The notes under the pieces are model-generated. The model ran no database searches. It saw nothing but the letters and a program-made list of their open reading frames with translations, and was not told where the DNA came from. The translations under genes and the position numbers were made by a program. A DNA stretch of 64,000 bases. Origin: Dehalococcoidia bacterium (GTDB taxonomy: Bacteria; Chloroflexota; Dehalococcoidia; Lucifugimonadales; UBA3495). The DNA lies in NCBI GenBank assembly GCA_965249145.1, contig OZ252223.1, positions 2,121,757 to 2,185,756 of the forward strand, in the 5' to 3' direction. Shown here in pieces: positions 31,317-52,560 of the stretch. Numbering within the stretch: position 1 is the stretch's first letter; the number at the start of each line of letters is the position of its first letter.

Positions 31317-31934
31317 TTAAGGCACCGATGCCAGGCGACCCGCCGGGTCTGGCACCAACTCCAAGTAAATCAACGTCGTGGTGATCGACTTGTGGCCCAA
31401 CCACCGCGACAAATAGTTGATGGGAACACCGTGTAACAGCAGGTGCCGGGCGTAGGAATGCCGGAAAGTGTGAGTCCCGATTTGCCGGCCGGCGGGCAGG
31501 GCGCCCAGCTCCACGGCCCGGTCAACAGCTGACTGGACCCACCGCCAGGCGCGGATAATGCCGCCCTTCGATATGTCGGCGAACTGCAGCACGGCGACCA
31601 AGGCGTTTTGCAGCTCGGGGTGGACCGGCACGATCCGGCTACGCCCGCCCTTGCCCGACCGGACCTTGATGGTTGGTTGGTCCGAGTCGAGCGACAGGTC
31701 AGCGGCTTGCAGAGCCAGGGCCTCGGAGACCCTTAGTCCAGCTCGCCACTGAAGCAGCATGAGCAGGCGGGCCCGCGGGTTAGGGGAGGCTGCCAGGACC
31801 GCCTGGACTTCCCGGGCTTCGAGGTACTCCGGCAGAGTGGAACCTTTCTCTCCGGGAAATTGTTGCACCGGGGACTTGCGGGGGTGCTGGCCCCGGGGTC
31901 GGCGCGCGATTGCGGTGTTGGGGTTCGCCGGCAT
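31317..31934 (-). CDS. short tyrosine recombinase (catalytic domain only, 205 aa)
   Basis: WRAGLRVSEALAL (Arg I), HTFRHSYARHLL (H-x-x-R), LGHKSITTTLIYLE (His/Tyr). There is no N-terminal arm- or core-binding domain. Confidence 0.85.
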   Translation of the reverse strand: MPANPNTAIARRPRGQHPRKSPVQQFPGEKGSTLPEYLEAREVQAVLAASPNPRARLLMLLQWRAGLRVSEALALQAADLSLDSDQPTIKVRSGKGGRSRIVPVHPELQNALVAVLQFADISKGGIIRAWRWVQSAVDRAVELGALPAGRQIGTHTFRHSYARHLLLHGVPINYLSRWLGHKSITTTLIYLELVPDPAGRLASVP

Positions 31935-32585: not shown

Positions 32586-33806
32586 ATGTCCCACATGGCA
32601 ACATGGCTGACTCCCTTACGTCTTTGCGTACTTGTGCTGATTCTTCTGGCGCTGCTGGCCGCCTGTGGTTCGGATGCGCCGCCGGACACGCCCTCGCCAA
32701 CATCCAGGCCAGCAATTACAAACACATCGCCCGAAACGGACCGGGAAGCGCTGGTCGCGCTATACAGTGCCACGGCCGGCCCAAACTGGCGTCGTAACGT
32801 CAACTGGTTGAGCGAAGAGCCTATCGGCGAATGGTTAGGCGTGACCACCGACGACAATGGCCGGGTGACAGGCCTGGACCTCAGCGAACAAGGTTTGAGC
32901 GGGGAGATACCGGCGGAGTTGGGCAACCTGGCCAGCCTGAGATCGCTGGACCTCTACAGTAACCAGCTGAGTGGGGAGATACCGCCGGAGTTGGGCAACC
33001 TCGCCAGCCTGGAAGTGCTGAGCCTCTACGACAACCAGCTGAGCGGGGAGATACCGCCGGAGTTGACCAAACTCTCCAGCCTGACAGTGCTGAACCTCGC
33101 CGCAAACCAGCTGAGCGGGGAGATACCGGCGGAGTTGACCAAACTCTCCAACCTGACAGTGCTGAATCTCCCCGCAAACCAGCTGAGCGGGGAGATACCG
33201 GCGGAGTTGGTCACACTCTCCAACCTAATAGTGCTCAGCCTCGTCTATAACCAGCTGAGCGGGGAGATACCGCCGGAGTTGGCCAACCTGGCCAGCCTCG
33301 AAAAGCTGTGGCTCCGTGGCAACCAGTTGAGCGGGGAGATACCGCCGGAGTTGGCCAACCTGGCCAGCCTCGAAAAGCTGTGGCTCCGTGGCAACCAGTT
33401 GAGCGGGGAAATACCGCCGGAGTTGGGCAAACTCGCCAGCCTGGAATCGCTGTATCTCGGGCTCAACCAGTTGAGCGGGGAGATACCGCCGGAGTTGGGC
33501 AACCTCGCCAGCTTGGGATTCCTGGGCCTCAGGGGCAACCAGCTGAGCGGGGAGATACCGCCGGAGTTGGGCAACCTGGCCAGCGTGGAGTTGCTGTATC
33601 TCGCCGGAAACCAGCTGAGCGGAGCGATACCGCCGGAGTTGGGCAACCTGGCCAGCCTGAAAGGACTCGGCCTCACCGGAAACCAGCTGAGCGGGTGCGT
33701 ACCAGGCAGCTTGCAACGCCGATTGTTTATGAGTACTCCGACTTGGGCGGCCTGCCGTTTTGCTGAGGGCCTGCCTCATTATTCGGCAGCAATCGCAGGA
33801 CGGTAA
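32586..33806 (+). CDS. leucine-rich-repeat lipoprotein (plant-type LRR, about 13 repeats)
   Basis: Lipobox LLAACGS, LRRNT-like REALVALYSATAGPNWRRNVNWLS...W.GVT, then 24-residue LxxLxLxxNQLSGEIPPELGNLAS repeats. The last about 15 codons appear frameshifted; the expected end ...YEYSDLGGLPFC* is at 33766. Confidence 0.8.
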   Translation: MSHMATWLTPLRLCVLVLILLALLAACGSDAPPDTPSPTSRPAITNTSPETDREALVALYSATAGPNWRRNVNWLSEEPIGEWLGVTTDDNGRVTGLDLSEQGLSGEIPAELGNLASLRSLDLYSNQLSGEIPPELGNLASLEVLSLYDNQLSGEIPPELTKLSSLTVLNLAANQLSGEIPAELTKLSNLTVLNLPANQLSGEIPAELVTLSNLIVLSLVYNQLSGEIPPELANLASLEKLWLRGNQLSGEIPPELANLASLEKLWLRGNQLSGEIPPELGKLASLESLYLGLNQLSGEIPPELGNLASLGFLGLRGNQLSGEIPPELGNLASVELLYLAGNQLSGAIPPELGNLASLKGLGLTGNQLSGCVPGSLQRRLFMSTPTWAACRFAEGLPHYSAAIAGR

Positions 33807-34026
33807 ACGGAGTGATTTCGCGTTCTCCACGTGCCCCGTAATTGGGGCCACCCTACGGCATATCTACGACCCCCATTGCCTCCGAAGCGGAGTTGATGTG
33901 GTAAACCAGCCGGCGGTGCTGGCGGGCAAGCCGGGTATTGTTCCGCATCGGCCTGGCGTCGGCAAATCCCGGGTCTGTCAACAGCATCAGCTACCGCCAC
34001 CTCGGCTCCCATTACGGAAGATTCCT

Positions 34027-34167
34027 CGCGGGGGTGCTGGCCCCGGGGTCGGCGCGTGATTGCGGTGCAGGCGGTGGTCGTCATTGACGCAACAAAATCC
34101 TTCCTTTTGTTGCACGGTCAACCGGCCAACGTCAGTACCACCGGCGAAGCCTATCGCGCTGGTGGAC
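34027..34167. repeat. module B: integrase-start remnant, palindrome GCAACAAAA-TCCTTCC-TTTTGTTGC and first about 55 bp of the arm
   Basis: Remnant ORF start MTTTACTAITRRPRGQHPRE compares with MPANPNTAIARRPRGQHPRK of the intact integrase. Homology to modules A and C ends at ...gctggtggacc. Confidence 0.75.
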
Positions 34168-34477
34168 CTTCCCCGGTGGATAGTTCAGCTCGATTAGGTA
34201 TGGGCCAACTTCCGAACAGCACTCAGCATTTATTACGCACTTCTCACATTCTTGGCGTGGGGGATTGTTGATTGTTGCCTTCCTGGGGTTCCCCTGCTCC
34301 CCAACGCGATGAAGCAGTCGACAATTAGTGTACGCTATAGCAGCCACTGTACCTTGCCGGGGGTTCCTTGCCTGTCCTTCGGTGATTTGGAACGGCCTCT
34401 GGCCGCAGTACCTCCACCTTGACAAAGGGTATATGTCTCACTAGTTTTAGTTTACGCATCACTGAAAGGGGCGCGTT

Positions 34478-35467: not shown

Positions 35468-35709
35468 AACCCCGGGGCCTTGCGGGAGTGCTAGCCCAGG
35501 GGACGACGGGTGATTGAAGTCCTAGCAGTGGTGGTCATTGGTGCAACAATATGCTCGATTTTGTTGCACGGTCAACCGGACAGCGTCAGTACCACCGGCG
35601 AAGCCTACCGCGCTGGTGGACCGGCGACCGCCCCAGCTCTGACAGTATCCAGATTCTTAGCGGTGGCCAGTTAGGCGCTACAGGCCGCCGGCCGAGGCCT
35701 CCTGACCCC
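35468..35709. repeat. module C: decayed integrase start (contains a stop), palindrome GCAACAATA-TGCTCGA-TTTTGTTGC and full upstream arm
   Basis: Aligns with module A over about 240 bp. Confidence 0.8.
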
Positions 35710-35742
35710 TCTATCCGGGCTTGACGCCGGCCGGGCAGGCCG

Positions 35743-36325
35743 TCAGCAAAACGGCAGGCCGCCCAGGTCGGAGTACTCCATATCCAATTGGCCCTGCAAG
35801 CTGCCTGGTACGCACCCGCTCAGCTGGTTGCCGTTGAGGCGCAGCCGGGTTAAGCGGGCGAGGTTGCCCAACTCCGGCGGGTATCCACCCGCTCAGCTGG
35901 TTGTTTTGGAGCCACAGACCCTGCAGGTTGGCCAGGTTGCCCAACGCCGGCGGTGTATCCCAGGTCAGCTCGTTCGAGGAGAGGTCCAGCACTCGCAGGT
36001 TGGCCAAGTTGCCCAACGCCGGCGGTATTTCCCCGCTCAACTGGTTATCGTTGAGGACCAGTTGTGTAACGAGGCCGGCGACGTTAGTGTCGACTCCACG
36101 CCAAAGGAACATTGGTGCGTCGCTCAGCCAGTTTTCGTTATGCATCCAAGTGGGGCCGTCCGTGGCGTTGTAGAGGGCGACCAACGCTTCCCGGTCCGTT
36201 TCGGGTGATGTGTTTACAAGGGCTGAACTGGCGGGTGTGTCCGAACCGCAGGCGGCGAGCAGAGGCAGAAGAAACAGCACAAGGCCGTAAAGATGTAAGG
36301 GAGCCAGCCGTGTGGGCGTCACCAT
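35743..36325 (-). pseudogene. LRR lipoprotein with a 1-nt frameshift near the 3' end
   Basis: Lipobox LLAACGS, REALVALYNATDGPTWMHNENWLS, then LRRs. Frame is lost at the run near 35879-35881. The corrected reading ends ...GNQLSGCVPGSLQGQLDMEYSDLGGLPFC* at 35743. Confidence 0.65.
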
Positions 36326-36531
36326 GGGAGTGTCGGCACGTATACCGCAACTATGACAAGTCGCCCATGCCAAAGTTGCAAGGTGACCTTCTTGAGGAGC
36401 CACCACAAAGCACCGGGCGCAGAGTTCAGCAAAGGCTACCCATCACCCTATACGTTGTCCATTGTGATAACGGCCGCTGCCGTATCAGCTTTGGTTGTGA
36501 TACTAGGGGTTGCCGCGACTCCCGCTCAACG

Positions 36532-38385
36532 TCATTCGCCGTGCCACGGTGGCAAGACAATTTCGCCCCCTCCCCAGCAGATGACGGTGCCGTCGGTTCT
36601 GACCCCGCAGGTGTAGTTGCTCCCGGCGCTGACAGAGACGAACTCCCCGCCTGGTGGCGTGGCCTCACCATTGAAATCATTGCCCCAGCAGGCAATGGAG
36701 CCGTCGGTTCTCACTCCGCAGGTATGGTTGTTACCGGCGCTGACGGAGACGAACTGCGATGCGGGCGGCGTGGCCTGGCCTTCTTCATTATTGCCCCAGC
36801 AGGAGATGGAGCCGTCGGTTCTCACTCCGCAGGTGTGGTAGGATCCGGCGCCGAGGGAGACGAAATCCCCTTGAGGCGGCGCGGCTTGGCCGTATTGATC
36901 AAGACCCCAGCAGGAGACGGAGCCGTCGGTTCTAACACCGCAATTGTGGTCGTAACCGGCGCTGAGGGCGGCGAATTGCCCCCGGGGCGGAGTGGATTGG
37001 CCGCGGTGGTCATAGCCCCAGCAGGAGACGGAGCCGTCGGTCCTCACCCCGCAAGTGTGGGACAGACCAGAGCTGACGGAGCCGAATCCCCCTGGGGGCG
37101 GCGAGTTTCGTCCTTTGCGATCATCCCCCCAGCAGTCAATTGAGCCGTCGGTTCTCACTCCGCAGGTGTGGTTGTACCCGGCGCTGACAGAGGCGAACTC
37201 CCCTTGGGGCGGCGTGGCCTGGCCGTGGCTATTATTGCCCCAGCAGGCGGCTAACCCGTCGGCCCTCGTCCCGCACGCGTGCCAGGACCCGGCGCTAACG
37301 GAGGCGAATTCCCCGGTGAACGGCGAGGCCCTGAGGTAGGATTCATTGCCCCAGCAGGAGACGGAGCCGTCGGTTCTCACTCCGCAGGTGTGGTAGTACC
37401 CGGCGCTGACGGAAGCGAATTCTCCCTGAGGTGGGGTGGCTTGGCCGGAATCATTATTGCCCCAGCAGGAGACGGAGCCGTCGGTTTTCACTCCACAGGC
37501 GTGGCTCCCGCCAGCGCTGACGGAGGCGAAATTGCCGGTTGTTGGCGTGGAACGGACAACGATACGACTTCCCCAGCAGGAGATGTAGCCACCGTGCCTC
37601 ACCCCGCAGCTGTGCCAGTTCCCGGCGCTGACGGAGACGAACTGCGATGCGGGCGGCGTGGCTTGGCCGGAATCATTATTGCCCCAGCAGGAGACGGAGC
37701 CGTCGGTCCTCACCCCGCAGGTGTGGAAGTACCCGGAGCTGACCGAGGCGAAGTCCCCCTGGGGTGCCGCGGCCTGGCCTTCTTCATCATTGCTCCAGCA
37801 GGAGACGGAGCCGTCGGTCCTCACCCCGCAGGTGTGGAAGCCCCCGGCGCTGACGGAGGCGAATGCCCGGGTTGGCGGCGTGACCAGGCCATGAGAATTA
37901 TCACCCCAGCAGGCGACCGAGCCGTCGGTTCTCACCCCACAGGAGTGGCTCCCGCCAGTGCTGACGGAGGCGAATTGCCATTGGGGCGGCGTGGCCAGGC
38001 CATGAGAATTATCACCCCAGCACACGACGGAGCCGTCGGTTCTCACGCCGCAAGAGTGGTGTAACCCGGCGCTGACGGAGGCGAACCTGACCTCCCCATT
38101 TTCGACATCACTGCCTCCGCCCACCTCGGGGTTGGCGTCGCCCGCTTCTTCAGTGTCGTCCGGTTGGGCGGTAGGCTCAGGAGTTGACGTGGAGGTAGAT
38201 GTCTGCGTCGGTGAAGGTACCGGGGTGTTCGTCGGACTCGTTGTTGCCAGTGACTCAGGTGTGAATCCGGGCCTCGGAGTCGCCGTGGGAAGCGGGGTCG
38301 GCGTAGGAGTGACGGCGGGTTCGGCCTCACAGGCAATTGCGAGCAGGAGTGCGAGGCCCAGTGCAATGGCCGTCGCCAGCTTCAT
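36532..38385 (-). CDS. RCC1-repeat lipoprotein (about 22 repeats)
   Basis: Lipobox LLAIAC and a Pro/Thr-rich linker, followed by repeated F.SVSAG..HTCGVRTDGSV.CWG.N..GQATPP units. Confidence 0.85.
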   Translation of the reverse strand: MKLATAIALGLALLLAIACEAEPAVTPTPTPLPTATPRPGFTPESLATTSPTNTPVPSPTQTSTSTSTPEPTAQPDDTEEAGDANPEVGGGSDVENGEVRFASVSAGLHHSCGVRTDGSVVCWGDNSHGLATPPQWQFASVSTGGSHSCGVRTDGSVACWGDNSHGLVTPPTRAFASVSAGGFHTCGVRTDGSVSCWSNDEEGQAAAPQGDFASVSSGYFHTCGVRTDGSVSCWGNNDSGQATPPASQFVSVSAGNWHSCGVRHGGYISCWGSRIVVRSTPTTGNFASVSAGGSHACGVKTDGSVSCWGNNDSGQATPPQGEFASVSAGYYHTCGVRTDGSVSCWGNESYLRASPFTGEFASVSAGSWHACGTRADGLAACWGNNSHGQATPPQGEFASVSAGYNHTCGVRTDGSIDCWGDDRKGRNSPPPGGFGSVSSGLSHTCGVRTDGSVSCWGYDHRGQSTPPRGQFAALSAGYDHNCGVRTDGSVSCWGLDQYGQAAPPQGDFVSLGAGSYHTCGVRTDGSISCWGNNEEGQATPPASQFVSVSAGNNHTCGVRTDGSIACWGNDFNGEATPPGGEFVSVSAGSNYTCGVRTDGTVICWGGGEIVLPPWHGE

Positions 38386-38503: not shown

Positions 38504-38692
38504 TTACCCGGATCCGGGTTGCTCTGTATCCGACTCTTCCCTGACCTCGCGCATCGCGTCAGTCAGTCGCCCGAATTGTTCCTCGGTGAGCTCGGGGGAG
38601 TCATCGTCATCGAGGAACGATGCCGCGTACATGGCTTCCTTGCTGACGCGGTAGTGCGTGATTCCGTTTTCGTCTACCCATGAGGTGGTCAT
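38504..38692 (-). CDS. small acidic protein, last gene of the polyvalent-protein operon
   Basis: 62 aa, rich in D/E (FLDDDDSPELTEEQF...EESDTEQ). Its start overlaps the stop of the 1030-aa gene (ATGA). Confidence 0.45.
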   Translation of the reverse strand: MTTSWVDENGITHYRVSKEAMYAASFLDDDDSPELTEEQFGRLTDAMREVREESDTEQPGSG

Positions 38693-41600
38693 TGCGTCTT
38701 GATTATCTCCATCTTAAAGTCGTCCACGCCCTTGAAGACCACTTCGTCCTCACTGGTGAAAGAGCCGGTTGTGTGGGCTAGGTCGGTGAGGATTATCGAG
38801 TCGACAGGCACTTCGGCTTTCGCCACAAAGGAGCCGTGGCCCCCCTGGAAGTTGTGCGCCACCGAGGGAGAGAAGCTCCAGGAGTAGAGCGGGGGGTCGT
38901 CCAGGTTAACAATTGAGCCCACCTGGGAATTTTTCAGGCCCAGGTACTTCACCTGGTCGGGCTTCCAGCCCCGGTAGACCGTGATCTTGTCCTTGCCTGG
39001 GCGCTTCATCGCCATCAGGACCTCGTTCTGTTCGCTGGTGACCTTCAGGCCCTTTACCAGGTCCTGGGCCTCCGGCTCGGCGGTAGCCTTCTTCATATAG
39101 TCGGCGTACTCTTTCCGGTTCTTTGCCGAAAGAGCCCCTTCCTTGACCAGAAACTCGTTGAACTTATCCAGCCTCCGCAGCTCCTGGTCTCCTTCGGCGT
39201 GCAGCTCGCCGGCGCCCCAACGAAGGACCGAGCCCCCGGGACTAATTGACGACCCCTTCCAGCTCCCGTACCGGGACCGCACCCTATCGGCGGCTGCGCT
39301 TCCCTCGGTTTGTCCCAGCTCCATGGCCATTATCTTTTCAGTCAGTTGCCATTTGGCGTCGGGACCAGGGGAGCTGATCTTGTAGCCGTTGGCTTTGTCG
39401 GCGATCGCCTCTACGCTCGCGTCCTTCAGGTCCGAGAGCCCCTTCAGCTGCTGCAGCGTGGCAGCCTTCTTCTGTTGCTGCTTCAGGACCTTCTCCACGA
39501 TGTAATCCCTGCGCTGCTTAAGACGGCTTTTGACCAACCCGGGCAGGTCCTTGGCGGCCTCTCCGAATTGGGAGACCGGGTATTCGGGCGACGTCTTGGG
39601 CAGGTCGGCGCTATCTACGGCAAAGTCGATCTGGTCATCGGTAATGGCGGCCACCCGTTCCGCGCTCGCCGCAATTTCCGCCGAAGACATATCGGCGAAA
39701 ACTTTGGAGGCCTCCTTGGATTGGCTAGGATTGCGCATGGTGTCTATTTCCTGGACGGTTTCGGGGAAGTCCCGGCCTTTCCCCTGGGCCCGGAACAGCA
39801 GGCTGCCGCCCACGTCGGTCCGGTAAGCCTTGTCCCCAGGTCCTCCTACCACGTTATCCGCCTGCAGGCCCACAACGTCCCAATTCGCCAGCCAAGCGTC
39901 GACCGCAAAGCCGGCCCGGACGTCCGGGTGGACTCTCATATCCTCAAAGGTCATCGGGGCGGCCTCGTCGATCCAGTCGGACATCACCGCGTCCTTGCCC
40001 TGGAAGTTGATGACGCGGACGGACGGGACCGGGACCTCCGCGTAGCTGTACAGCAGGGCAGTGAGCCCTTCCATCTTGGCCCGGGCCTCGGAGTTCGGCC
40101 ATTTCACGTAGTGCAGCGATCCGAGGTGTTTGTCCTTGAACAGACCCCCTTCGTTGGAGCCCTTCTTGCCGGAGATTTTCTGTAGGTCAGCATTGTAGTC
40201 CTTAGTGCCCTGCTTGATCTGGTTGCGGTGCTTTTTCAACGTCGCGGCGGCCGGGGTTTCCTGCCCGGGTAATTTCACCTCGCCGCTGCCAACGCTGGCC
40301 ATGGTGTCGCCGAAGCCGGAGCCGCCATCTCCCTCCAGGACCGGCTGCCCCTGGACCTTGCCTTTCAGCTCGGCTGCAACATTCAGGACGGCCGCCTTCT
40401 TGGCCGGACTCAGCATCTTGGCCAACAGAGTCCCGGCCACCTGGTCCACCTCGTCGGGGCTTCCGGTTTGGGCAGCCTTTTCCAGCTTCTTGACGTTGAC
40501 GGGCGTGATCAGGGCCTTCCCCTTGTTGTCATGGGGGACAACACCGGCAGTTATCGGATCGGCCTGTTGCGACGCCGGCGTCGGCGCTGGTGCGGGGGCC
40601 TGGTCATCCTGGTCATCCACCGAGGAGCTTCCGCCCACGGCGATCGCGTCCAGTTGGCCCTGCAGCGCGCCCACAACGTCGAAGAGCGCCTTCTTGGCGG
40701 CCGGAGTCTTGTAGCTTGGCCCTGCTGCCATGATGTTGGCGGTCGCCGTGAGGAAGCCCTTGTCGCCGGTCACCGCGACAGTCTCGAGCTGCTTGACCTG
40801 GCCCGCATCGATCCCAAACGGGATGCCCGCCAGCGTGGGCTTGCCGGTAACTGCGGCCTGGGCCTCAGCCGCTTTTTTGTTTGCCTCGATGAGCTGGTTC
40901 TCCAGCTCATTCGCGGCCTTTTGTACCAGGTGCTTCTTGCCGTATTGGCCGGTCTGGTCCACCAGGTCCTTGGCCGTCTGATGCAGGGTGTCTATATTGC
41001 CAGTTGAAGCGGCGCCCTCGAGCAGGTTTATCTCGCTTTCGGTCAGCGGGTCGTCGTCATAGTGGCCATCGGTATCCATTGGTTTGAGCTTGGCCGCGAA
41101 GGTGCCCCTGACGCCCTTCGTTTCTCCGGCATAGCCGGCGGCGTTGAGCATGCGCCATTCGGCTTGGTAGCCGAGGGCGTGGAAGGTCAGGAACCACGCT
41201 TGGAAGTGCTTGCCCCTGTGGGCCTTGTCCGGGCGGCCGTCGTGGTCGAGCGGGCCCCATTCCACGAACTCCGGAACGTTCTCGATGAGGACGCACCTGA
41301 CGTCCAGCTTCGTCAGCCAGTTGTGAATCGCCCAAGGGTTCATCCTGCCTTGGTCGTGGACCGGCTTTCCGCCGCGGGCGCGGGAGTAGAACTTGCACTC
41401 CGGGCTGGCCATGAGCAGGTCGAGGCGTCCCTCTTCGACCACCGCCTCCGGGTCCACGATGCTGACATCCTCGACCAGGTGCCGGGCGGATGGGTGGTTC
41501 GCTGAGTGGGTCGCGACTGCGATGTTCCAGTGGTTGACGGCGACCAGCTCCATCGACCCGCCGATCTCGGCGATGGCCTTCTTGGCGCCGGTCGACGAGC

Positions 41601-41781
41601 CGCCCGCGCCGCAGAACAGGTCCGCGACCAGGTAGGTATCGGTCGCGGTCATTGCCGGAAGGGCTGCCGGCGTCGGGGCGGATGCCTCGACGTTAGGCGC
41701 TACCAGCTCCTGGGCGGCGTCGGCTGTGGGCGCGGGCATCTGCGAATGGTGCCGTCGGCGCAGCCTCGCGGCCGTCATCAT
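38689..41781 (-). CDS. polyvalent protein: C5-cytosine-methyltransferase N-terminal half, helical repeats, protein-kinase-like core and R-S-ExE ADP-ribosyltransferase
   Basis: - aa 55-61 FCGAGGS, 126-133 SPECKFYS, 166-172 IENVPEF
- aa 541-560 GSNEGG...HYVK, 633-643 NWDVVGLQADN, 655-660 TDVGGS
- aa 936-938 YRG, 967-971 SWSFS, 1010-1016 SEDEVVF. Confidence 0.8.
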   Translation of the reverse strand: MMTAARLRRRHHSQMPAPTADAAQELVAPNVEASAPTPAALPAMTATDTYLVADLFCGAGGSSTGAKKAIAEIGGSMELVAVNHWNIAVATHSANHPSARHLVEDVSIVDPEAVVEEGRLDLLMASPECKFYSRARGGKPVHDQGRMNPWAIHNWLTKLDVRCVLIENVPEFVEWGPLDHDGRPDKAHRGKHFQAWFLTFHALGYQAEWRMLNAAGYAGETKGVRGTFAAKLKPMDTDGHYDDDPLTESEINLLEGAASTGNIDTLHQTAKDLVDQTGQYGKKHLVQKAANELENQLIEANKKAAEAQAAVTGKPTLAGIPFGIDAGQVKQLETVAVTGDKGFLTATANIMAAGPSYKTPAAKKALFDVVGALQGQLDAIAVGGSSSVDDQDDQAPAPAPTPASQQADPITAGVVPHDNKGKALITPVNVKKLEKAAQTGSPDEVDQVAGTLLAKMLSPAKKAAVLNVAAELKGKVQGQPVLEGDGGSGFGDTMASVGSGEVKLPGQETPAAATLKKHRNQIKQGTKDYNADLQKISGKKGSNEGGLFKDKHLGSLHYVKWPNSEARAKMEGLTALLYSYAEVPVPSVRVINFQGKDAVMSDWIDEAAPMTFEDMRVHPDVRAGFAVDAWLANWDVVGLQADNVVGGPGDKAYRTDVGGSLLFRAQGKGRDFPETVQEIDTMRNPSQSKEASKVFADMSSAEIAASAERVAAITDDQIDFAVDSADLPKTSPEYPVSQFGEAAKDLPGLVKSRLKQRRDYIVEKVLKQQQKKAATLQQLKGLSDLKDASVEAIADKANGYKISSPGPDAKWQLTEKIMAMELGQTEGSAAADRVRSRYGSWKGSSISPGGSVLRWGAGELHAEGDQELRRLDKFNEFLVKEGALSAKNRKEYADYMKKATAEPEAQDLVKGLKVTSEQNEVLMAMKRPGKDKITVYRGWKPDQVKYLGLKNSQVGSIVNLDDPPLYSWSFSPSVAHNFQGGHGSFVAKAEVPVDSIILTDLAHTTGSFTSEDEVVFKGVDDFKMEIIKTQ

Positions 41782-43114
41782 TCTAGGAACTCCTCGAATG
41801 CCGCGTACCGCTCGAGAAGGGCCAAGTGAAGAGTGCCCACCGGCCCGCTCCGGTTCTTGGCGACGATGATCTCAGCCACGCCCTTCGGGTAGGGTTCGCC
41901 CAAGTTCGTGCGGCACCACTCATCCTCCGTGATGTACCGGTCCGGCCGGTGGATGAACATCACCACATCGGCATCTTGCTCGATGCTGCCGCTTTCCCGA
42001 AGGTCCGACAGTATGGGCCGGCGGTCCGGCCGGTTCTCCGGCCGGCGCGAGAGCTGGGAGCACACCACCATGCCGCAGGCCAACTCCCTGGCCAGCCCCT
42101 TCAGCGCTGCGCTGATGCCGCTAACCTCCTGCTCGCGGTTCTCCCGGGCCCTTCCCTGGACCAATTGCAGGTAGTCCACCGCCAGCAGGTCGAGGCCCTG
42201 TTCCGCGGCCAGGCGCTTGGCCTTTCGGCGGATCTCGCCCACCGTCTGCTGCGGGGTGTCGTCGATGTAAAGGGGAAGCTCCGAAAGCCGGCCTATAGAG
42301 TCCATGATCCTAGCTTCCTCAGCGTTGGTCAGAAGGCCCAGCGCCATCCGGTAGGGGTCAACTTGTGCCTCGGCAGCGAGAACGCGGACAGGCAGCTCCG
42401 ACCGGCTCATTTCCAGGGAAACGAATTCCGCCACGCTTCCCTGCCGGGCGGCGTTCAAGACCATGCCCAATGCCAGTGATGTCTTCCCCACCGAGGGGCG
42501 CGCCCCGACGATCACCACTTGTCCGCGTTTGATGCCCCCGAGCAGCTCGTCGATGCTGGCGTACCCGGTGAAGACGGGCCTGGCGGGGCCGGCGCCGACA
42601 TCGGCCCGTTCCTCCAGGAACTCGTCGTACACTTCCCTCAACGGGATAGGGCCGTCAAGGCGGGCTTGAGGGTTGTCTATAGCTTGCAGCACGGCCTCCG
42701 CCTGGCGGAGTGCCGCGCCGATGTCGTCAGTGTCCTGGTATCCCATCGAGGAGATGCGCGACGCCGCGTCGACCAACTTTCTCATGGTGGAGGTGCGCGA
42801 GACCGCGTTGGCGTAGTCTTCCGCGTGGGCCGACGTCGGAGTGATCGCTACAAGATGGCTCAAATATGCCATCCCCCCGACGACTCCAGGAGACCGGTGC
42901 GGCCCAACTCTCCGGCGATGGTCAGCTGGTCGATGGCGTCGCCCCGGTCGAAGAGGTCGCGGGCGGCTTGAAACACCACGGCGTTTCGTTCCCGGTAGAA
43001 GTCGCCAGCCTGCAGTTCCAGGCGGGTCATGCACTCGCCGTCGATCAGGAGGCTGCCAATCACAGCCTCCTCCGCCTCGGTGTCGTGGGGCAGGAGCTTC
43101 TCCGCGAACACCAT
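41778..43114 (-). pseudogene. DnaB-family helicase paralogue carrying a homopolymer frameshift
   Basis: - The N-terminal 84-aa ORF (MVFAEKLLPHDTEAEEAVIGSLLIDGE...) and the 448-aa ORF join at the C6 run 42873-42878 (LLESSGG/MAYLSHL).
- Walker A GARPSVGKTS.
- Locally very similar to chromosomal DnaB (GGMAYLSHLV.ITPTSAH.EDYA.AVSRTSTMRKL.DAASRIS.MGYQDT). Confidence 0.8.
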
Positions 43115-43116
43115 GC

Positions 43117-43833
43117 CTAACCATCCACCACCGCAGCCCAGCGGACGAATCTCCGGTCGGTCAACTTCGCCGGCAGGGCGGGGTCGTCCGGGAGCATCCG
43201 GGTGGTAACCACGGTTGCCAGTTTGTGCTCATAGCGGTGATTGACCAGATTGGCCAGCTGTTCGTCGGCCCACTCCGTCTGCCGCTCCTCGCCCAGGCCG
43301 TCCAGCGCCAGCAACCGGGCGTCCATGATCCGGGAGTAATCGAACACCTCGCGGAATTCGGGGCTGCGCATCCGGTCCAAGAGCCTCACCACCCCCGCCC
43401 ATGTCCCCGGATGCGCAGCTGCGGCCAGCACCGCCTTGGCCAGGTGCGACTTGCCCGCACCAGCAGGGCCGTTCAGGACCAAGAACCCTTCCGGGTTAGC
43501 GGCGTACTGCCGGGCGGCGGCCAATGCCGCAACTAGCGCCGGCCCCTTCGAGCAGTCAAACGTGTCGAAGGACGATTCCCGAAGCCGCTGCAGGCCGAGA
43601 TCCCCCAGTGGGGCCTTGACCCCGAAGGCCGCTGCATCGCCGCTGCAATCCTTGCAGATTGACGACCCGGCCAGGCGGCCCGCCGGGTCACGAAACTTCC
43701 GGAACCCCTTGCCGCCGCAAAGCTCACACGCAGGCGGCAGCATCGGCTCCAGGAATTCCGTCGGGGTAGACTGCGTCGATGTATGCCTGTGCCGGATGTC
43801 CTGCAGTATTTCTCCCAGGGCTTGCACTTGCAT
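43117..43833 (-). CDS. DnaC/IstB-like AAA+ loader with N-terminal Cys4 ribbon (single module)
   Basis: CELCGGKGF...CKDCSG, Walker A GPAGAGKSHLAKAV, Walker B LLALDGLG. The N-terminal LGEILQDI parallels LGDILRRI of the chromosomal gene. Confidence 0.75.
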   Translation of the reverse strand: MQVQALGEILQDIRHRHTSTQSTPTEFLEPMLPPACELCGGKGFRKFRDPAGRLAGSSICKDCSGDAAAFGVKAPLGDLGLQRLRESSFDTFDCSKGPALVAALAAARQYAANPEGFLVLNGPAGAGKSHLAKAVLAAAAHPGTWAGVVRLLDRMRSPEFREVFDYSRIMDARLLALDGLGEERQTEWADEQLANLVNHRYEHKLATVVTTRMLPDDPALPAKLTDRRFVRWAAVVDG

Positions 43834-44575
43834 TTCCCTTCCTCCCCCTCGCTATGATTTTCACTTCCTGGGCGAAAAAGCCGTTCAATACCCTTAGCCG
43901 GTCGGGCGCGTCCGGATAGCAACGCTCCTCGAAAGCCCGGTAGGCACTCTCGGCCTGGGCCTCGCTTAGGCCGTGGTCCTGGTAGGCCCTGCGGACCTCG
44001 CCCCAGTCCATCTCGTCGGCATGGACCGACCGGTTGAACCATTCGGGGCCCGATTGTTTTTTTTCATGTCCAACGACGTCGTTATCTATTACATCTAGAC
44101 TAGTAATAGGTATGGGGTGACAACTACTGTCACACCCCCCTCGATTTTCCAAGCTAACCGTTGTCGTACCCACCGCGACAATAGTTGTCGCACCCCCCAC
44201 GATAGTAGTTGTCGCACCCAAGGGCCAGACCGCCACCAGAATCCCCTCGTTTCCGCTGCCTTCGGTCCGCGCCAAGCCCACCGCTTCCAGGGCTTTCAAA
44301 CATCGCCCGGCGGTCCGGCGGTGGATGCTGAGGGCGTCGGCCAATGACTCCAGAGTGAGCTGGCAATACCCCTCGAATCTGCCCTTTCTCGTGCGTGAAA
44401 GAGCTAGGAATTCGTAGGTACGCAAAGCTGTGGCCATGGACACGCACTCGCGTTTGCCGTGTTGGGATTTCAATCCCTGAAGGTGGTCGGCGAGGGCGGC
44501 TACGGCCCCGGCCGGTAGCTTGACGTAGTTGTTCGCGGGCCACTCCGGCCGCTGCGTGGTATCATGGCTTTCCAT
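43724..44575 (-). CDS. winged-helix DNA-binding protein, putative replication initiator
   Basis: wHTH-like LTLESLADALSIHRRTAGRCLKALEAVGLA. Located upstream of the loader and helicase genes. Contains the iteron-like repeats. Start taken at MESHD. Its 3' end overlaps the loader gene by 110 nt. Confidence 0.45.
   Translation of the reverse strand: MESHDTTQRPEWPANNYVKLPAGAVAALADHLQGLKSQHGKRECVSMATALRTYEFLALSRTRKGRFEGYCQLTLESLADALSIHRRTAGRCLKALEAVGLARTEGSGNEGILVAVWPLGATTTIVGGATTIVAVGTTTVSLENRGGCDSSCHPIPITSLDVIDNDVVGHEKKQSGPEWFNRSVHADEMDWGEVRRAYQDHGLSEAQAESAYRAFEERCYPDAPDRLRVLNGFFAQEVKIIARGRKGNASASPGRNTAGHPAQAYIDAVYPDGIPGADAAACV
44113..44222. repeat. iteron-like cluster: GTTGTCG(C/T)ACCC at exact 24-bp spacing plus inverted copies
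   Basis: Direct copies at 44160, 44184 and 44208. A related CTGTCACACCCC lies at about 44127. Inverted copy within GGGGTGACAAC at 44115-44125. GCGACAA at about 44175. Confidence 0.5.
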
Positions 44576-44672
44576 GAGTTCACCCCACCCCTTCCCGGGT
44601 AACTTTTGCCCCGCTCTGCCGCAGTTTGAAGCCCGGCTGAGCACCGAAAATCCTAGGGCATATTGATCGGCA

Positions 44673-45665
44673 TCAAAGGGTTATGCCAACCCTGTATGCC
44701 CTACTACAACCCCTCGTAACAAACGTCTTGCTCGCACCCCGGCGACCTACCGCAGACCCCTTAAAATCCTGCTCATGCTCGGCCGCGATTTCCACTTGAG
44801 TCTTCCCGCGAGCCGCGGCTTCCCGTATCGATTCGTTTCTTAGCCCCCTTTCCTCGTCCGAGAGGTGCCAGGGGCGGGCGGCAGGACGGATCTTGACCAC
44901 CCGTGACGTCTTGCCAGGCCACCGCCCCAGGGCGGCCGCGGCATAACGCTCATCGATTTCCATGGCGTAACCCTCCTTCAGCCCGCGCTCCAGCGCCGCC
45001 AACAACGTGGTGCCAGACCCGGCAAATGGGTCGTAAACCGCCCACTCTTCGGCCCCCAAGGCGTGCATCAGCGCCTTAACTACTGATACCGGCTTTTGCG
45101 TAGGATGAACCCGGTTCCTCGGAGGCACCGGTGGCGCAAGGATGACGTCGGGTTTGCCCCACACGGATGGCCCTGGCTGCCGCTTCCCCTGCAGGACCTT
45201 CTCGAAGGCAAGGACATCCTCGTGGGCGCTGCGCCACTCCCCTCCGACGCCCGCCACCACTTTGCTTCGGTCGTGCGTGGTTTTGACCCAGACGACCTCC
45301 GCGCTCAGGGCGAAGCCTGCCCCCTGGATGATGTCGCCGGTGAGGGCCAACTGCCGCCAGTCGGTGAAGATGTAGACCCTGTCCGGGACCGCCCGGTCTA
45401 GCATTCTCACTATCAGGTCTCGGTAGCCCGTCTCATTCAGCACGTCGCCGCGGATGGGCTCGTAGTTCGACCTGGTCCCCTTGCTCCCCAGGATTTTGTT
45501 GTTGAGCCGCCCGGCGGAGTAGGCTGGGTCGGTCATTACGCACAGCCTGGATCTACGGCGTTCCCTGAGCAGGTGGCGGACGTCCTCCGCCCGGGTGGAG
45601 TCGCCGCACATTAGGTAGAACTCGCTCTCCTCGTGGGTCAGCTTGTAAATTTCGCCGCGCCGCAT
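44673..45665 (-). CDS. N4/N6 DNA methyltransferase (beta-class, PF01555-like) with C-terminal HTH-like tail
   Basis: TDPAYS (DPPY-type motif IV) precedes HPTQKP and FAGSGTT (motif I). Start taken at MRRGEIYKL. Confidence 0.8.
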   Translation of the reverse strand: MRRGEIYKLTHEESEFYLMCGDSTRAEDVRHLLRERRRSRLCVMTDPAYSAGRLNNKILGSKGTRSNYEPIRGDVLNETGYRDLIVRMLDRAVPDRVYIFTDWRQLALTGDIIQGAGFALSAEVVWVKTTHDRSKVVAGVGGEWRSAHEDVLAFEKVLQGKRQPGPSVWGKPDVILAPPVPPRNRVHPTQKPVSVVKALMHALGAEEWAVYDPFAGSGTTLLAALERGLKEGYAMEIDERYAAAALGRWPGKTSRVVKIRPAARPWHLSDEERGLRNESIREAAARGKTQVEIAAEHEQDFKGSAVGRRGASKTFVTRGCSRAYRVGITL

Positions 45666-45733
45666 TGGCCCCCCTACCTCCCAATCCGAACATCCGCCTT
45701 TGGCCGTGCAATTCTGGCGACCAGGCATGGCCC

Positions 45734-47307: not shown

Positions 47308-47366
47308 GGCTGGGGTCTGGCTAGGACTCCTGATCCAGAGTCATACGTCCTATTACTGCTCCCCGC
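47308..47366 (-). pseudogene. decayed tRNA-Gln-like relic directly 3' of the intact tRNA-Gln
   Basis: Shares GGCTGGGG...CTGATCCAGAGTCA..CGTCCTA with the adjacent tRNA. It lacks the T-arm and has mismatched stems. Confidence 0.45.
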
Positions 47367-47371
47367 TTCTT

Positions 47372-47445
47372 TGGCTGGGGATGGAGGATTCGAACCTCCG
47401 CTACCTGATCCAGAGTCAGGCGTCCTACCGCTAGACTAATCCCCA
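47372..47445 (-). tRNA. tRNA-Gln (anticodon CUG)
   Basis: A 74-nt cloverleaf folded by hand:
- acceptor TGGGGAT/ATCCCCA with U1-A72, discriminator G73, encoded CCA
- D-stem GTCT/GGAC
- anticodon stem CCTGA/TCAGG with loop CT-CTG-GA
- T-arm GGAGG-TTCGAAT-CCTCC. Confidence 0.9.
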
Positions 47446-47718
47446 GCGCGGTACGGTCGAGAAAAGAGTGAACGCAGATTGTTGTAGGGTGCCTATGCGA
47501 GGAAACGACTTCGGGTCTTTTCTGCTAGGTCTAAGCTCCTTCCCTGAGGGGTGGCTTCTGCCATGGTATCAAAGTGCAACGCATTGGGTAAACTGTCGCC
47601 AGCCAATCGGCCCGAGACAGGGGCCACGTCCCGAGCCCGTCATCTGGTTGAGGTCGCTGGAATAAAGAGCTATTGGTTCTGTTGCATTTTGCGGGGTAGA
47701 CTCGCGTTACCGTTGGCG

Positions 47719-48243
47719 TTACTGCCCGTGAGCGAGCGCTGGCCGGTTTTCTATCACCCACCGCTTTGCCTGGTCCGCGGGATCGTGGACAGTGGGATTC
47801 TTATCCATCCGCGCTCCGATGGTTACCCACTTTCTCAGCTCCGCGTCAGTCATTTCTATCAGCTCAACCCAGTCCTCTGTAGTCAAGGCAGACCCTGCGG
47901 CTACCCGGTTGCGCAGGGTGTCCATAAGCTTGTTGTTGAATGCCCGCGACTCTTCCCACCATTCGTGATATCGGTCAGCTCGGCTTCGTTGATAAGCGAC
48001 CTTACTGTCCATCTTGGTCTGCATGCGGTCCGTGACGTTGGCGTCCTCTTTGCGCAGCAGGTCCCTGAAGGCAGCTTTTAGTCTTGACTCCAACAACATG
48101 AAGGCTAACTCGTCTCTCCGCTTGCGTGCCTTGAACTCATTCAGGGGCGGTTGTACGACCTCGTCGATGGCCTGGTCGAGCCGGAGCCACTCATCCCCGA
48201 CAACTTCGGCTGATGGTTGGTTCTGCTTTTTGGGCCTTGGCAC
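47719..48243 (-). CDS. hypothetical protein (helical, charged)
   Basis: 174-aa ORF beginning with GTG. It may be fused to the upstream zinc-ribbon ORF if a frameshift is present. Confidence 0.4.
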   Translation of the reverse strand: MPRPKKQNQPSAEVVGDEWLRLDQAIDEVVQPPLNEFKARKRRDELAFMLLESRLKAAFRDLLRKEDANVTDRMQTKMDSKVAYQRSRADRYHEWWEESRAFNNKLMDTLRNRVAAGSALTTEDWVELIEMTDAELRKWVTIGARMDKNPTVHDPADQAKRWVIENRPALAHGQ

Positions 48244-48346
48244 GGTTCGCCCGCTGCCGGCAGGTCCCGCCGCAGTACCTAGCCGTGCCCCGTTGGGCCT
48301 GAAACTCTGTGCCGCACGTCTCGCAACGTAGCTTTAACCCTGGCAT
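48191..48346 (-). CDS. small Cys4 zinc-ribbon protein
   Basis: MPGLKLRCETCGTEFQAQRGTARYCGGTCRQRANR. A GGAGG RBS lies 7 nt upstream of the ATG at 48346. Confidence 0.45.
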   Translation of the reverse strand: MPGLKLRCETCGTEFQAQRGTARYCGGTCRQRANRAKAQKAEPTISRSCRG

Positions 48347-49019
48347 TAGCGTTACCTCCGGCCTGTAACGTGATGATAGTCCCTCCTGGTGACTGCGTGT
48401 TACTGGCCCTAATTGTAACGCGAGGCTACCCCGCAAAATGCAACAAAACCCCCAAAGACACTTTCAACTGTGGACTCTAAGCATTGCATCACGCGGTTGG
48501 CAACCGGGAACTGTCACTGCCTGAGTGGAGTTGATGGGAGGCCCAAATCTCCGTGGCACCGCTTAAGGCCCAGGGCCGTCCCTCGGGTGAGCTGGCAAAG
48601 AAGCTAGGCCGTGCGTATTGCACCAGCCGTAGGCCCGGCGGGTGCCATGACGTCGTGCTGAACGTCGTCGACGTCCATGAGTGCAGCTGGTCGAGGGCCA
48701 TAGTTAGGCGCTACTTCACATTTGAGTTTCGCCCCGGGCAATCCTCGCAGGCTTCGTCGGCGTGCTATGGTGCCAGCTCGAGCTCGGCCAAGGCAACTTG
48801 GACGGCATCGAAGGCAAATAGGCCCCCGTTTTGCAACCGGGAGGCCATGCGTTCGGCCTTCCAGTCTGTCTTGTCAGACCAGGGCATCAACTGCCCCGCT
48901 CGTCGATGCCCAGCGGAATAACCCGAAGAGCTTCGTCTGCGGCCCGGAGCGGTCCCGAAGGGCCCCTGGCCGACGTTGGGGCCACCCCATCGGGTGTTAC
49001 TGTTCAGCGTCAACTACTT

Positions 49020-50696
49020 CTGCCGGCCTGTTGCCTCACCGGAAAATGTTACCGAAACTTTAGCACCTAGAATCCACTCCGATCAGCGCCAGTTCCGGGA
49101 GTCCATGCGGTTCCGTTGAAGCGGCAGCAGTCCCGGCGTAAACCAGTTTTTTGGCCATGATGCAGCGCCACGCCTTCACCCGGCGTTGCATGGTTCGTAA
49201 CTGTGCCGTGCTGAAACGATCTGGGTGTTCCGCCTGCAATCTGGTCATCAGCGCCTTGCCGGTCACATCCGGGTGGGCTTGCAACCAGACCAGCACGTTG
49301 CCCCAAACCCCTTCGATGGGGTCCTTGCGGGTTCGCCAGTGCCGGGGACACCGGACTCGGGCCGCGTGGGTAGGTAGGCCGGACTTCGCCTTGGCGCCAC
49401 AGCCTGGGCAATTTGGCGAGGAAACGTTCAAGGCTTTCGCCCGTTGGCGTTTCCTGCACGTCTGGAGGGGTCGCTGCCACCAGGGCCGACTGGGCTTCCC
49501 GGATGGTATGCAGCAACAGCAGCGGATCCAGCCTGGCTCGGTATTGGCGGAGCGCGTCCTTCATGTCACCGTCGATTGCATCGTGCTGTATCGCGCGGTC
49601 GCAGGGCGTGGTGGGCTGACTGTAATGCTTGACGGTGGTGGCGCCGTGCCGGGTCTTGTTGATCAGCTTGAACGAGGGTTGGAAGAGTTCACGTACAGCC
49701 GCAACGCCCCGTAAAGGTGCGCCATGGTCTGCCCGGCGACCTGGCCCGAATAACGATCATGGCCGACGAAGGGGCGTACCACAGAACCATTTTTCTGCTC
49801 GATGCAGGCCTGATCGTTGCTGCGGTACGCTCGCGACCGGGTGAACTCAATGTCACGGTCAGCGCAGTACTGGATCAGCGTCTCGTTGATGAACACGCCA
49901 TCGTTGTCCGAGTCGATGCCGCGGATGGGGAAGGGCAACCGCTGACCAATGGCTTCCAATCCAGCCACGATCAGGGACTGCTCCCTAGCCAGCAGGGGAA
50001 CGGCTTCGGTCCAGCCGGTGCAGATGTCGGTAGCCACCAGGCTGTGGATGAATGATCCGGACAGCGGTCCACCACAGTGCGCCACCAGGTCTATCTCCAG
50101 GAACCCGGGCGGCGGTCCGTTCCAACCATTGTACGTACGCACCGGAACGCGTTTCCCCATCGCTTGCCGACGCCGCCGTCGGCGTCGGGTGCCCGCTGTG
50201 GGACGGATCGGTTTCAGGAGACGGTCCAGGGTGGCTGCGCTGGCAGCGAGGAGACGATCCCGCACCTCAGGATCCAACGCGAGATGACCATGGCGCTCCA
50301 TGGAATCCACCAGGTGGGACAGCGCCGCCTTCAGGCGTTTCCCACAGATACGGTCAGCAGCTTCCCAGATCACGATCACTGCTTCTCGAACGGCCTCATC
50401 GTAGATGCGCCGGCCTCGTGCCGGTCGCGGTGTATCCTCATTATCGTCAAGCTGCCCTAGCAACCTGATGCCGTGCTTGCGATGGTGTCCAGTGATCGCA
50501 ATGAACTCGTCCAGGATACGGCTCTTCTCCTTCTTTGAGGAGCTCCGGTAACGGTCTCTCAGTGTCGCCAGTAATTCCCGCTTTGCCATCCTGCTTATGC
50601 CTCCACCCACGTGGCCGCCTCCGAGTTTTCGGTAACATTTTAGTTGAGGCAACAATCTCCGTTGGTAACGTTTTAGGTGAGGCAATCCGCCGGCAA
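49020..50696 (-). mobile_element. insertion sequence with rve/DDE transposase (ISNCY/IS1202-group-like; family tentative) and about 30-bp imperfect terminal inverted repeats
   Basis: Ends are CTGCCGGCCTGTTGCCTCACCGGAAAATGTTACCG (49020-) and GGTAACGTTTTAGGTGAGGCAATCCGCCGGCA (-50695). An extra internal copy GGTAACATTTTAGTTGAGGCAACA lies at about 50632. Confidence 0.7.
49060..50685 (-). pseudogene. DDE transposase with at least two frameshifts
   Basis: Three overlapping ORFs:
- N-terminal MAKRELLATLRDRYRSSSKKEKSRILDEFIAITGHHRKHGIRLL
- DDE core (EIDLVAH..., GIDSDNDGVFIN, IEQKNG)
- C-terminal RTRKDPIEGVW...LRTMQRRVKAWR in other frames. Confidence 0.75.
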
Positions 50697-51978: not shown

Positions 51979-52560
51979 TTGAAACCGATCAACATAGTGG
52001 TTACATGCACAAAAAGAAAGCGGTTGCCTCCGGCTGGAGGTTCGGAAATGTGGGGCATAGATGCACACGACGTGGACTCGGCTTTCGCGGAATGGTCAAG
52101 CCGCTTGGAACGTTGCACCGCGGAACCAGTCCCCGCCAGAAGGTTGTACACTGGTGACCACTGGAGTGTAGTTCAATCCCTGGAGGACGTTGCCGCCGCC
52201 TCCAAACTCGACTCTGCGATTTGGGTTTGCTCCGCTGGGTATGGCCTCATAGGCATCGATACCAACATCAAACCCTATTCTGCGACGTTTTCTTCACGCC
52301 ATCTGGATACGGTGTGCAGATGGAATCGACATTCTGATTCAGGTCCAAATGACGGCCGTTCTTGGTGGGAATGCCAGCAAGCATGGGGTGGTCCCGAACC
52401 TTCGATGCCTCGTTCCATCGCCGAAATCGCAGCGCTGGACTCCCGATCGCCAGTGTTGATCGTGGCCTCCAGAGGCTACATGAGAGCAATAGTTGGCGAT
52501 GTCCAAAGAGCGACTAGGCTGCTTACCGATCCTGACTTATTGTCTATCATCTCCACTGGC
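51979..52560 (+). CDS. hypothetical protein truncated by, and fused in-frame to, a partial IS3 transposase
   Basis: MKPINIVVTCTKRK...RRLYTGDHW...VCSAGYGLI...KPYSATF loosely resembles DUF6884-type proteins (tentative). The ORF runs on into IS3 orfB sequence, giving a 439-aa chimera. Confidence 0.4.

Follow-up and report, generated by a model that had tools for sequence, protein, structure and literature searches.

Polyvalent proteins of phages and conjugative elements (Iyer, Burroughs, Anand, de Souza, Aravind 2017; PMC5512222) are very large, multi-domain products of mobile elements, which combine protein-modifying enzymes, such as ADP-ribosyltransferases (ARTs) and kinases, with repeated helical modules. 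Delivery together with the DNA is predicted for them, and their domain composition varies between relatives. In phage T4 Alt and other head-packaged ARTs with an R-S-E active site, an ART of this clade lies at the end of a protein that is injected and ADP-ribosylates host proteins. Here, we analyzed a stretch of 64,000 nucleotides (nt; hereafter, the window) from a Dehalococcoidia bacterium (GCA_965249145.1, contig OZ252223.1, positions 2,121,757–2,185,756), in which one open reading frame (ORF) of 1030 amino acids (aa) encodes half of a cytosine-5 (C5) DNA methylase followed by an effector-type core of helical modules, a kinase-like domain and a predicted ART. This core resembles the polyvalent proteins in its size in relatives, its protein-modifying enzymes, its helical modules and its variable domain composition, and may likewise be delivered with the DNA; T4 Alt may serve as a mechanistic model for it. 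We conclude that the ORF is probably a recombinant gene that arose by deletion or by an illegitimate-recombination fusion in a decaying prophage remnant. Counted from the methylase's own start, 174 codons at the head of a C5 methylase gene from a phage early region appear to have been fused in frame, by a non-homologous join, to the final 813 codons of a much larger effector gene.

The ORF is single and unbroken in the ORF listing, as the initial annotation of this DNA had stated, and its stop codon lies within the coordinates. The GC content at third codon positions (0.81) is typical for real genes in this window of 62% GC. Its ATG overlaps the stop codon of a phage-type DnaB gene (ATGA), a GAGGAG lies some 10 nt before it, and its own stop codon overlaps the start of a gene for a 62-aa protein. 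The ORF and its parts are laid out as follows:

38689–41781, minus strand: probably chimeric ORF, 1030 aa
41653–41781, minus strand: leader, codons 1–43, Arg-rich and then Ala/Pro-rich, between the DnaB stop and the methylase-type start M44
41131–41652, minus strand: C5 methylase N-terminal half, codons 44–217, carrying motifs I, IV and VI and the beginning of motif VIII (96.9% nt identity to L002 1742–2259)
41129–41130, minus strand: proposed recombination junction, '...GGCTATG' followed by 'CCGGAGAAACG...', in frame, microhomology of at most 2–3 nt
38692–41130, minus strand: C-terminal 813 aa of the larger effector, codons 218–1030 (97.3% nt identity to L006 2296–4930; about 70% aa identity to P0001–P0003)
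40888–41046, minus strand: helical module 1, aa 246–298 (profile match)
40645–40806, minus strand: helical module 2, aa 326–379 (profile match)
40345–40509, minus strand: helical module 3, aa 425–479 (profile match)
39610–40227, minus strand: kinase-like (K) domain, aa ~519–724, predicted protein-kinase fold, closest to CtkA/HipA
38989–39606, minus strand: all-helical region, aa 726–931, preceding and packing against the ART core in the model (the Pfam DRAT match begins at aa 882)
38692–38988, minus strand: predicted ART beta-core, aa 932–1030, with R937, S967/S969 and E1011/E1013
38504–38692, minus strand: conserved 62-aa acidic protein, start overlapping the ORF stop, following every homologue examined

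Codons 1–43 may or may not be translated. In the initial annotation, a truncated methylase, repeats, a kinase-like core and an R-S-ExE ART had been named, and all four identifications hold, that of the ART as a prediction, with residue ranges correct to within about 20 aa. The succession of the four parts had also been taken for an architecture, and this we revise: it is a unique junction of two genes that exist separately, each with about 97% DNA identity in another metagenome assembly.

Homologues of the ORF (related proteins and loci are numbered with P and L, respectively) fall into two groups. Effector-type proteins (P0001–P0015, 613–1741 aa) match only aa ~220–1030 (48–72% identity) and have no methylase, and complete C5 methylases (P0016–P0120, ~570–840 aa) match only aa ~45–230, mostly with 72–90% identity (P0016: 90%). 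At the DNA level, window positions 41132–41649 share 96.9% of their nucleotides with the first 518 nt of the L002 methylase gene (642 aa), and positions 38505–41129 are 97.3% identical to L006 2296–4930, which is the 3' part of a far longer effector gene; both loci are from ENA assembly ERZ26167216. These two similarities abut within 2 nt. In a three-way alignment, the switch lies between window positions 41130 and 41129, from '...GCCGCCGGCTATG' to 'CCGGAGAAACG...', between codons 217 and 218, with at most 2–3 shared nucleotides and the reading frame kept. The break on the methylase side is inside motif VIII and not at a domain boundary (the methylase runs on '...LNAADYGDATTRKRFF...', the window reads '...LNAAGYA' and then 'GETKGVR...'), and the break on the effector side is in a linker between modules. 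Upstream of the junction, the effector frame of L006 stays open for at least 765 aa and encodes a further kinase-like domain and more helical modules.

Among 5.8 billion clusters, no second protein spanned the methylase and effector parts. Within the set of proteins collected, none of the 105 methylase homologues (all 571–843 aa) contains a kinase-like or ART module, and a methylase is found in none of the 169 proteins with the kinase-like module and in none of the 60 with the ART module. Independent copies of the junction were sought with a 33-mer, which had no match in GTDB genomes, IMG/VR or JGI metagenomes. The half-methylase architecture would thus be a one-off recombinant and not a new designed architecture. 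The ratio of nonsynonymous to synonymous substitution rates (dN/dS) is 0.13 both against L002, where 14 codons differ, and against L006, where 46 do; therefore neither half has been adrift for long as a pseudogene, and either the join happened recently or its product retains a use.

The methylase half contains motifs I, IV and VI (DLFCGAGG, SPECKFYS, IENVPEF). Pfam PF00145 matches aa 52–234 (E = 6.3e-13) and covers profile positions 3–164 of 324 only, PHROG methyltransferase families match only aa 35–218, and the TIGR00675 score of the ORF is far under its cut-off. Resemblance to full-length methylases ends at '...MLNAA', at about codon 217, where motif VIII (QxRxR) is incomplete; no match to a target-recognition domain or to motifs IX/X was found in the 1030-aa ORF, and PF00145 positions 165–324 are unmatched. 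Because C5 methylase activity requires motif X and the target-recognition domain, this half cannot be an active enzyme alone, and we infer that the piece is enzymatically dead. Split C5 methylases exist (e.g., M.AquI), and a separate C-terminal half was considered; tblastn of the whole 64-kb window found none encoded anywhere, and the candidate was rejected.

The effector core has a conserved order: helical module, kinase-like domain, a helical linker of about 200 aa, and ART. A profile built from about 140 module instances in homologues recovers exactly three copies in the ORF (independent E-values 1e-14 to 1e-22), with a conserved core of about 52 aa and a period of 80–100 aa; plain self-BLAST of the protein found no repeats, so the profile was needed. 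The AlphaFold2 model of aa 515–725 (22-sequence alignment) has a predicted local distance difference test score (pLDDT) of 88.9. Foldseek against the PDB gave 94 matches at E ≤ 1e-3, every one of the 50 listed being a kinase or another enzyme with the kinase fold, with the best superpositions to Helicobacter CtkA (template modelling [TM] score 0.47–0.49), MEK1, GCN2 and HipA. K560, E571, D628, N633, D635, N643, R654 and D656 are invariant or nearly so, and the Gly-rich loop (G541/G545) is conserved alongside K560, E571, D635, N643 and D656. The model thus predicts a bilobal kinase fold with a Gly-rich loop, a Lys-Glu pair, a catalytic loop and a metal-binding Asp. Pfam, NCBIfam and PHROGs gave no match to the kinase-like module of the query at the thresholds applied. 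Among 26 diverse modules, HipA_C weakly matches 12 (best 3.3e-3) and HipA_2 matches six (best 5.3e-4), all under curated thresholds and neither in the query. Kinase-PolyVal, which we take to be PF18762, is absent from the Pfam matches of the query and from the families matched by the 26 modules (E ≤ 1). Sequence searches of the PDB with the protein and three profiles gave chance-level matches only, save a weak match of the kinase-like profile to the LepB N-terminus.

The C-terminal domain is predicted to be a DRAT-like R-S-ExE ART. The AlphaFold2 model of aa 726–1030 (pLDDT 84.9) shows a long helical bundle and then a small beta-core. R937, S967/S969 and E1011/E1013 are invariant in 15 close relatives; across 24 diverse family members, R937 and E1013 never vary, and S967 is kept in at least 90%. 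Pfam DRAT matches the C-terminal 200 aa of the query with E = 5.7e-5 and 22.9 bits, under the cut-off of 25, as well as 10 of the 24 diverse members (best 7.5e-8), and no other family recurs. The top four Foldseek PDB matches of the C-terminal model are all ARTs (HopU1, SpvB twice, VahC), but with E-values of 0.16–0.6. Matches to predicted phage proteins in BFVD are significant (4.7e-6 to 8e-4), including a 1390-aa protein with a head-morphogenesis domain, and the arginine ART of Synechococcus phage S-PM2 matches at 3e-3. A sequence profile search of the PDB with the ART part gave no ART match.

To place the core within its family, an exhaustive search of 1.84 billion representatives was used. 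It yielded 4066 proteins at E ≤ 1e-3 (2520 of them at E < 1e-10), and most listed matches are the kinase-like module alone, often in giant proteins of up to 7004 aa with up to five module copies. The whole core is present in about 45 clusters at 50% identity, without the methylase. Intact effector relatives have about 1000–3000 aa, 5–10 helical modules and mostly two kinase-like domains, and never a methylase; members occur in chromosomes of Dehalococcoidia metagenome-assembled genomes (MAGs), which, along with the composition of the window, points to a probable host in this class. A homologue of the 62-aa acidic protein follows directly, with overlapping stop and start codons, in every relative examined, and 17 of its positions are invariant across five sequences. 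The 62-aa protein, noted as co-transcribed in the initial annotation, is thus a conserved and translationally coupled partner. In the closest relatives, the effector is split into separate gene calls (L006 2296–4930, with frameshifts on a 3.2x contig; L001 7189–13642, 843 + 1213 aa; L003 5764–12607, 1424 + 868 aa), which may reflect sequencing errors, pseudogenes or truly divided genes. Stand-alone and NUDIX-fused kinase-like modules also exist: P0271 and positions 49037–49528 of plasmid NZ_CP091089.1 are short kinase-like module proteins fused to or annotated with NUDIX (ADP-ribose pyrophosphatase). This NUDIX link appears to be a second tie between the module and ADP-ribose chemistry. A search of IMG/VR with the ART module found no relative.

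Using tblastn, we found the kinase-like module in cultured phages. In Yersinia phage fHe-Yen8-01, gp129 (WOL24339.1, 2146 aa) carries it at aa 1582–1762 (44% identity, E = 2e-36), and a PF03496 ART at aa 2035–2117. The protein is annotated as 'ADP-ribosyltransferase toxin; phage particle associated protein', and its gene adjoins others with the particle-associated annotation and a tail fibre gene. In Actinomycetia phage DSL-LC01, the module is in a 3289-aa protein encoded two genes upstream of the capsid maturation protease gene. Like the window protein, gp129 is a giant protein with a kinase-like module and then, about 270 aa later, a C-terminal ART; unlike it, the rest of the 2146 aa is unrelated, no 62-aa partner was identified and the kinase-like module is unannotated. 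Since the gp129 ART belongs to another family (PF03496), the order of kinase-like module and C-terminal ART recurs with different ART families. A looser form of the combination is already present in annotated cultured phages. Literature searches on fHe-Yen8-01 and on HipA-like virion ARTs found no paper.

Compared to the described systems, the core shows both shared and divergent features. Polyvalent proteins carry at least two effector domains per chain, and here a kinase fold and an ART are combined, with relatives of 1000–3000 aa and phage-type neighbours. The hallmark domains LPD, MuF, MPTase-PolyVal, ART-PolyVal and Kinase-PolyVal and the DarB-type methylase-helicase were not found among Pfam matches at E ≤ 1 (the query gives only PF00145 and DRAT), and the same was true of P0003 and P0121. 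The ART is of the R-S-ExE (DRAT-like) type, in contrast to the H-Y type of genuine polyvalent proteins; the polyvalent kinase family belongs to a group of Ser/Thr/Tyr kinases that lack the C-lobe, unlike the window's module; and polyvalent methylases are DarB-type adenine methylases fused to helicases, whereas a truncated C5 methylase is found here (all PMC5512222). The core would work like a polyvalent or Alt-type injected effector, yet it stands outside the described polyvalent families because it has no hallmark domains, an R-S-E and not an H-Y ART, and a kinase module unlike Kinase-PolyVal. The earlier general placement of the kinase-like/ART part among large phage effectors can be kept.

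T4 Alt differs in having neither a kinase-like domain nor a conserved small acidic partner. With HipA/CtkA kinases (PF07804, PF20613; PDB 3fbr, 3akk), the kinase-like module shares the superposition on CtkA and a similar catalytic-loop pattern of D/N-x-D ... N with a downstream Asp; unlike them, it is a short unit of about 200 aa with no counterpart of the HipA N-terminal domains, and it forms part of giant proteins, in many cases several times over. DraT (dinitrogenase reductase ADP-ribosyltransferase, PF07357; arginine-specific) is the only Pfam family matched by the C-terminal domain and has the same R, S, ExE pattern, but the subthreshold match spans only profile positions 118–247, and the domain has neither a nitrogenase setting nor a DraG partner. 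MuF-type polymorphic toxins of temperate phages, reportedly described by Jamet et al. in 2017, are said to have downstream immunity genes. As in these toxins, a C-terminal toxin domain on a phage protein is followed by a small gene, and the BFVD matches include proteins with a MuF ('head morphogenesis') domain; no Pfam or PHROG match to such a domain was found in the window protein, and none in P0003 or P0121.

Upstream of the ORF, the element continues with the following genes:

41778–43124, minus strand: phage-type DnaB helicase, stop overlapping the ORF start
43117–43833, minus strand: DnaC-like helicase loader
43724–44644, minus strand: 306-aa protein with weak helix-turn-helix matches, all under Pfam thresholds
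44673–45728, minus strand: N6/N4 DNA methyltransferase of the remnant

The element looks like the early/replication end of a prophage whose late region is gone, leaving a remnant of about 9 kb, because of its phage DnaB, DnaC-like loader and methylase neighbours and because in L015 the same methylase family lies in a temperate-phage early region (CI-like repressor, HicAB, replication initiator, DnaC-like gene). A truncated tyrosine-integrase-like ORF of 205 aa (31317–31934) has partial copies at 34024–34168 and 35472–35747, with insertion sequence (IS) transposases nearby; integrase homologues of 204–241 aa adjoin the effector loci in L001 and L006 and are also present in the methylase prophage L015. 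The window element has no recognisable gene for virions, lysis or conjugation, and genes for packaging virions or for conjugation were found neither in the window as a whole nor at eight related loci. The initial annotation had noted the missing virion genes and left the delivery route open; their lack is best explained by remnant status. Direct repeats bounding the element were sought as attachment (att) sites, and only a 24-nt partial duplicate was found by a nearby tRNA-Gln (47372–47445), with none near 38.4 kb. This 24-nt segment of the tRNA gene is duplicated 75 nt away with 92% identity (47329–47352 and 47404–47427) and may be an integration or excision scar.

In the proposed fusion, a single non-homologous deletion within a prophage, or an illegitimate exchange between two co-resident prophages, would have created the ORF. 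Either event would have run from mid-methylase to an effector linker, with loss of the remaining methylase, the leading part of the effector and everything in between, including the virion genes, and with the frame kept by chance. Judging from the phage relatives and the T4 Alt paradigm (PMC5512222, PMC9503650), the intact effector would be carried in the virion and injected with the DNA, where its CtkA/HipA-like kinase domain and arginine-type (ExE) ART would modify host proteins early in infection, and the 62-aa acidic protein may protect the producing cell as an immunity factor or serve there as a chaperone. The window's truncated effector would no longer be packageable; it may be a recent relic, or a toxin/immunity pair that survives on expression of the replication operon.

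Several observations weigh against this explanation. No contig with both parental genes was found, and 10-kb flanks never hold both, so that a single deletion is only a possible scenario; in eight relatives, neither a C5 methylase nor DnaB is present in the 10 kb around the effector gene. The window and L002 have different replication genes in front of the methylase. Among effector neighbours in the relatives, neither PHROG nor Pfam gave a virion match, including a PHROG scan of ten neighbours in L001, L004 and L005 (zero matches). The argument for virion delivery draws only on distant phage relatives of the kinase-like module, because the Dehalococcoidia neighbours lack virion matches and in several loci the effector gene adjoins an integrase at the end of an element. 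ART support for the query itself is below curated thresholds. Codons ~15–43 of the ORF ('TADAAQELVAPNVEASAPTPAA', window 41654–41704) resemble the Ala/Pro-rich 'VAPNxE' linkers of effector genes in L006, L003 and L001 (48 bits against the L006 linker, compared to a maximum of 33.7 in 100 codon shuffles). This effector-like leader is a hint that several rearrangements took place, or that an effector gene captured the methylase piece, and the piece may be flanked on both sides by effector-type sequence.

A broader proposal, which we hold only tentatively, is that the core represents an undescribed class of injected phage effectors, composed of 52-aa helical modules, a CtkA/HipA-like kinase of about 200 aa, a helical linker, a DRAT-like arginine ART and an obligatory acidic 62-aa partner. 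Kinase activity and ADP-ribosylation would act jointly on host targets, and the genes would be reshuffled at Ala/Pro-rich linkers, here with capture of a methylase fragment.

A sequencing or assembly artefact, either a chimeric read or a misjoin from another place or strain, would mean that no cell contains such a protein, which is a further point against the fusion; we consider it unlikely, though it deserves weight. Both 'parents' are separate genes at about 97% identity in the one assembly ERZ26167216, whose related contigs have low coverage (2–5x in their names) and, in L006, frameshifts; the region is rich in repeats and mobile elements, and the junction was not found elsewhere by the homologue or 33-mer searches. 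Against this, only 2–3 nt are shared at the join, which leaves nothing for an assembler to collapse on, and the two parts share one orientation and one frame, which a random join would achieve in about 1 case in 6. Both halves are about 3% diverged from the known copies, therefore the window is not a chimera of the L002 and L006 contigs. Long tandem repeats are resolved in the window, suggesting long reads that would span the site, and the operon is coherent, with the methylase start promoter-proximal and coupled to DnaB and the downstream partner gene intact.

Rather improbable, in our assessment, is that the kinase-like/ART and 62-aa genes form a chromosomal toxin-immunity or defence module near integrases, for which the remnant was kept, and are not virion cargo. 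The strictly conserved and translationally coupled partner, the location of the module next to integrases where elements end (L004, L006 and L001), and the lack of recognisable virion genes near the core in any Dehalococcoidia locus examined are consistent with such a module, as is the fact that HipA-type kinases and DRAT-type ARTs are classic toxin folds. However, chains of 1000–3000 aa in which modules are repeated many times and the kinase-like domain occurs in several copies are characteristic of phage polyvalent/virion proteins, the kinase-like module is part of a cultured-phage protein annotated as particle-associated, and the structural matches include phage proteins annotated with a head-morphogenesis domain. 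Finally, it is very improbable that the ORF is a functional new effector, with the methylase half gained by domain accretion as an S-adenosylmethionine/DNA-binding module or paired with a separate C-half: polyvalent proteins are reported to gain methylase domains repeatedly (PMC5512222), the ORF is intact with low dN/dS on both sides, the leader is linker-like and the effector-side breakpoint is in a linker, but the methylase-side breakpoint inside motif VIII is off any domain border, no C-half was found in 64 kb, the architecture is unique among billions of proteins, and the low dN/dS mostly reflects history before the join.

Other features of the window lie around the remnant. A 780-bp unit at 47675–48452 has 36-bp terminal inverted repeats and a 174-aa ORF (47719–48243, minus strand) with no Pfam or PHROG match; a 95% identical copy is present in L002 (9652–10434), the ORF has a copy with 83% aa identity in a Dehalococcoidia MAG (L009), and a 116-bp end of the unit directly follows the effector locus in L006. 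It looks like a small transposable element that travels with these prophages. Immediately downstream of the 62-aa gene are a gene for a 617-aa protein of RCC1-like 'CGVRTDGSVxCWG' repeats (36532–38385; 111-bp tandem array, 72–76% between copies) and leucine-rich-repeat genes (32586–33806 and 35711–36406). A 2308-aa ORF (53521–60447) contains 21 FG-GAP repeats plus cadherin, fn3 and Ig-like domains. An inverted pair of 752 bp with 97% identity (52564–53315 and 62587–63338) overlaps an rve-family transposase gene (51979–53298) and represents IS copies. A second DnaB gene (454 aa, 2416–3780), presumably the chromosomal one, has 67% DNA identity to the element DnaB (41842–43110).

Taken as a fusion in a decaying prophage, the locus has its value as a correction: an apparently exotic four-part polyvalent protein is probably the junction between two ordinary genes. 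The fusion should not enter catalogues as a new architecture, nor serve as the basis for a role of half-methylases in effectors. Worth following are a widespread, uncurated kinase-fold module in giant phage proteins, which repeatedly precedes C-terminal ARTs of different families, and, in Dehalococcoidia, its tie to a conserved small acidic protein. If an active kinase is indeed delivered at infection, this would add a second, unstudied protein-modifying activity to the Alt-like paradigm of injected ARTs, and would provide an experimentally tractable toxin/neutraliser pair.

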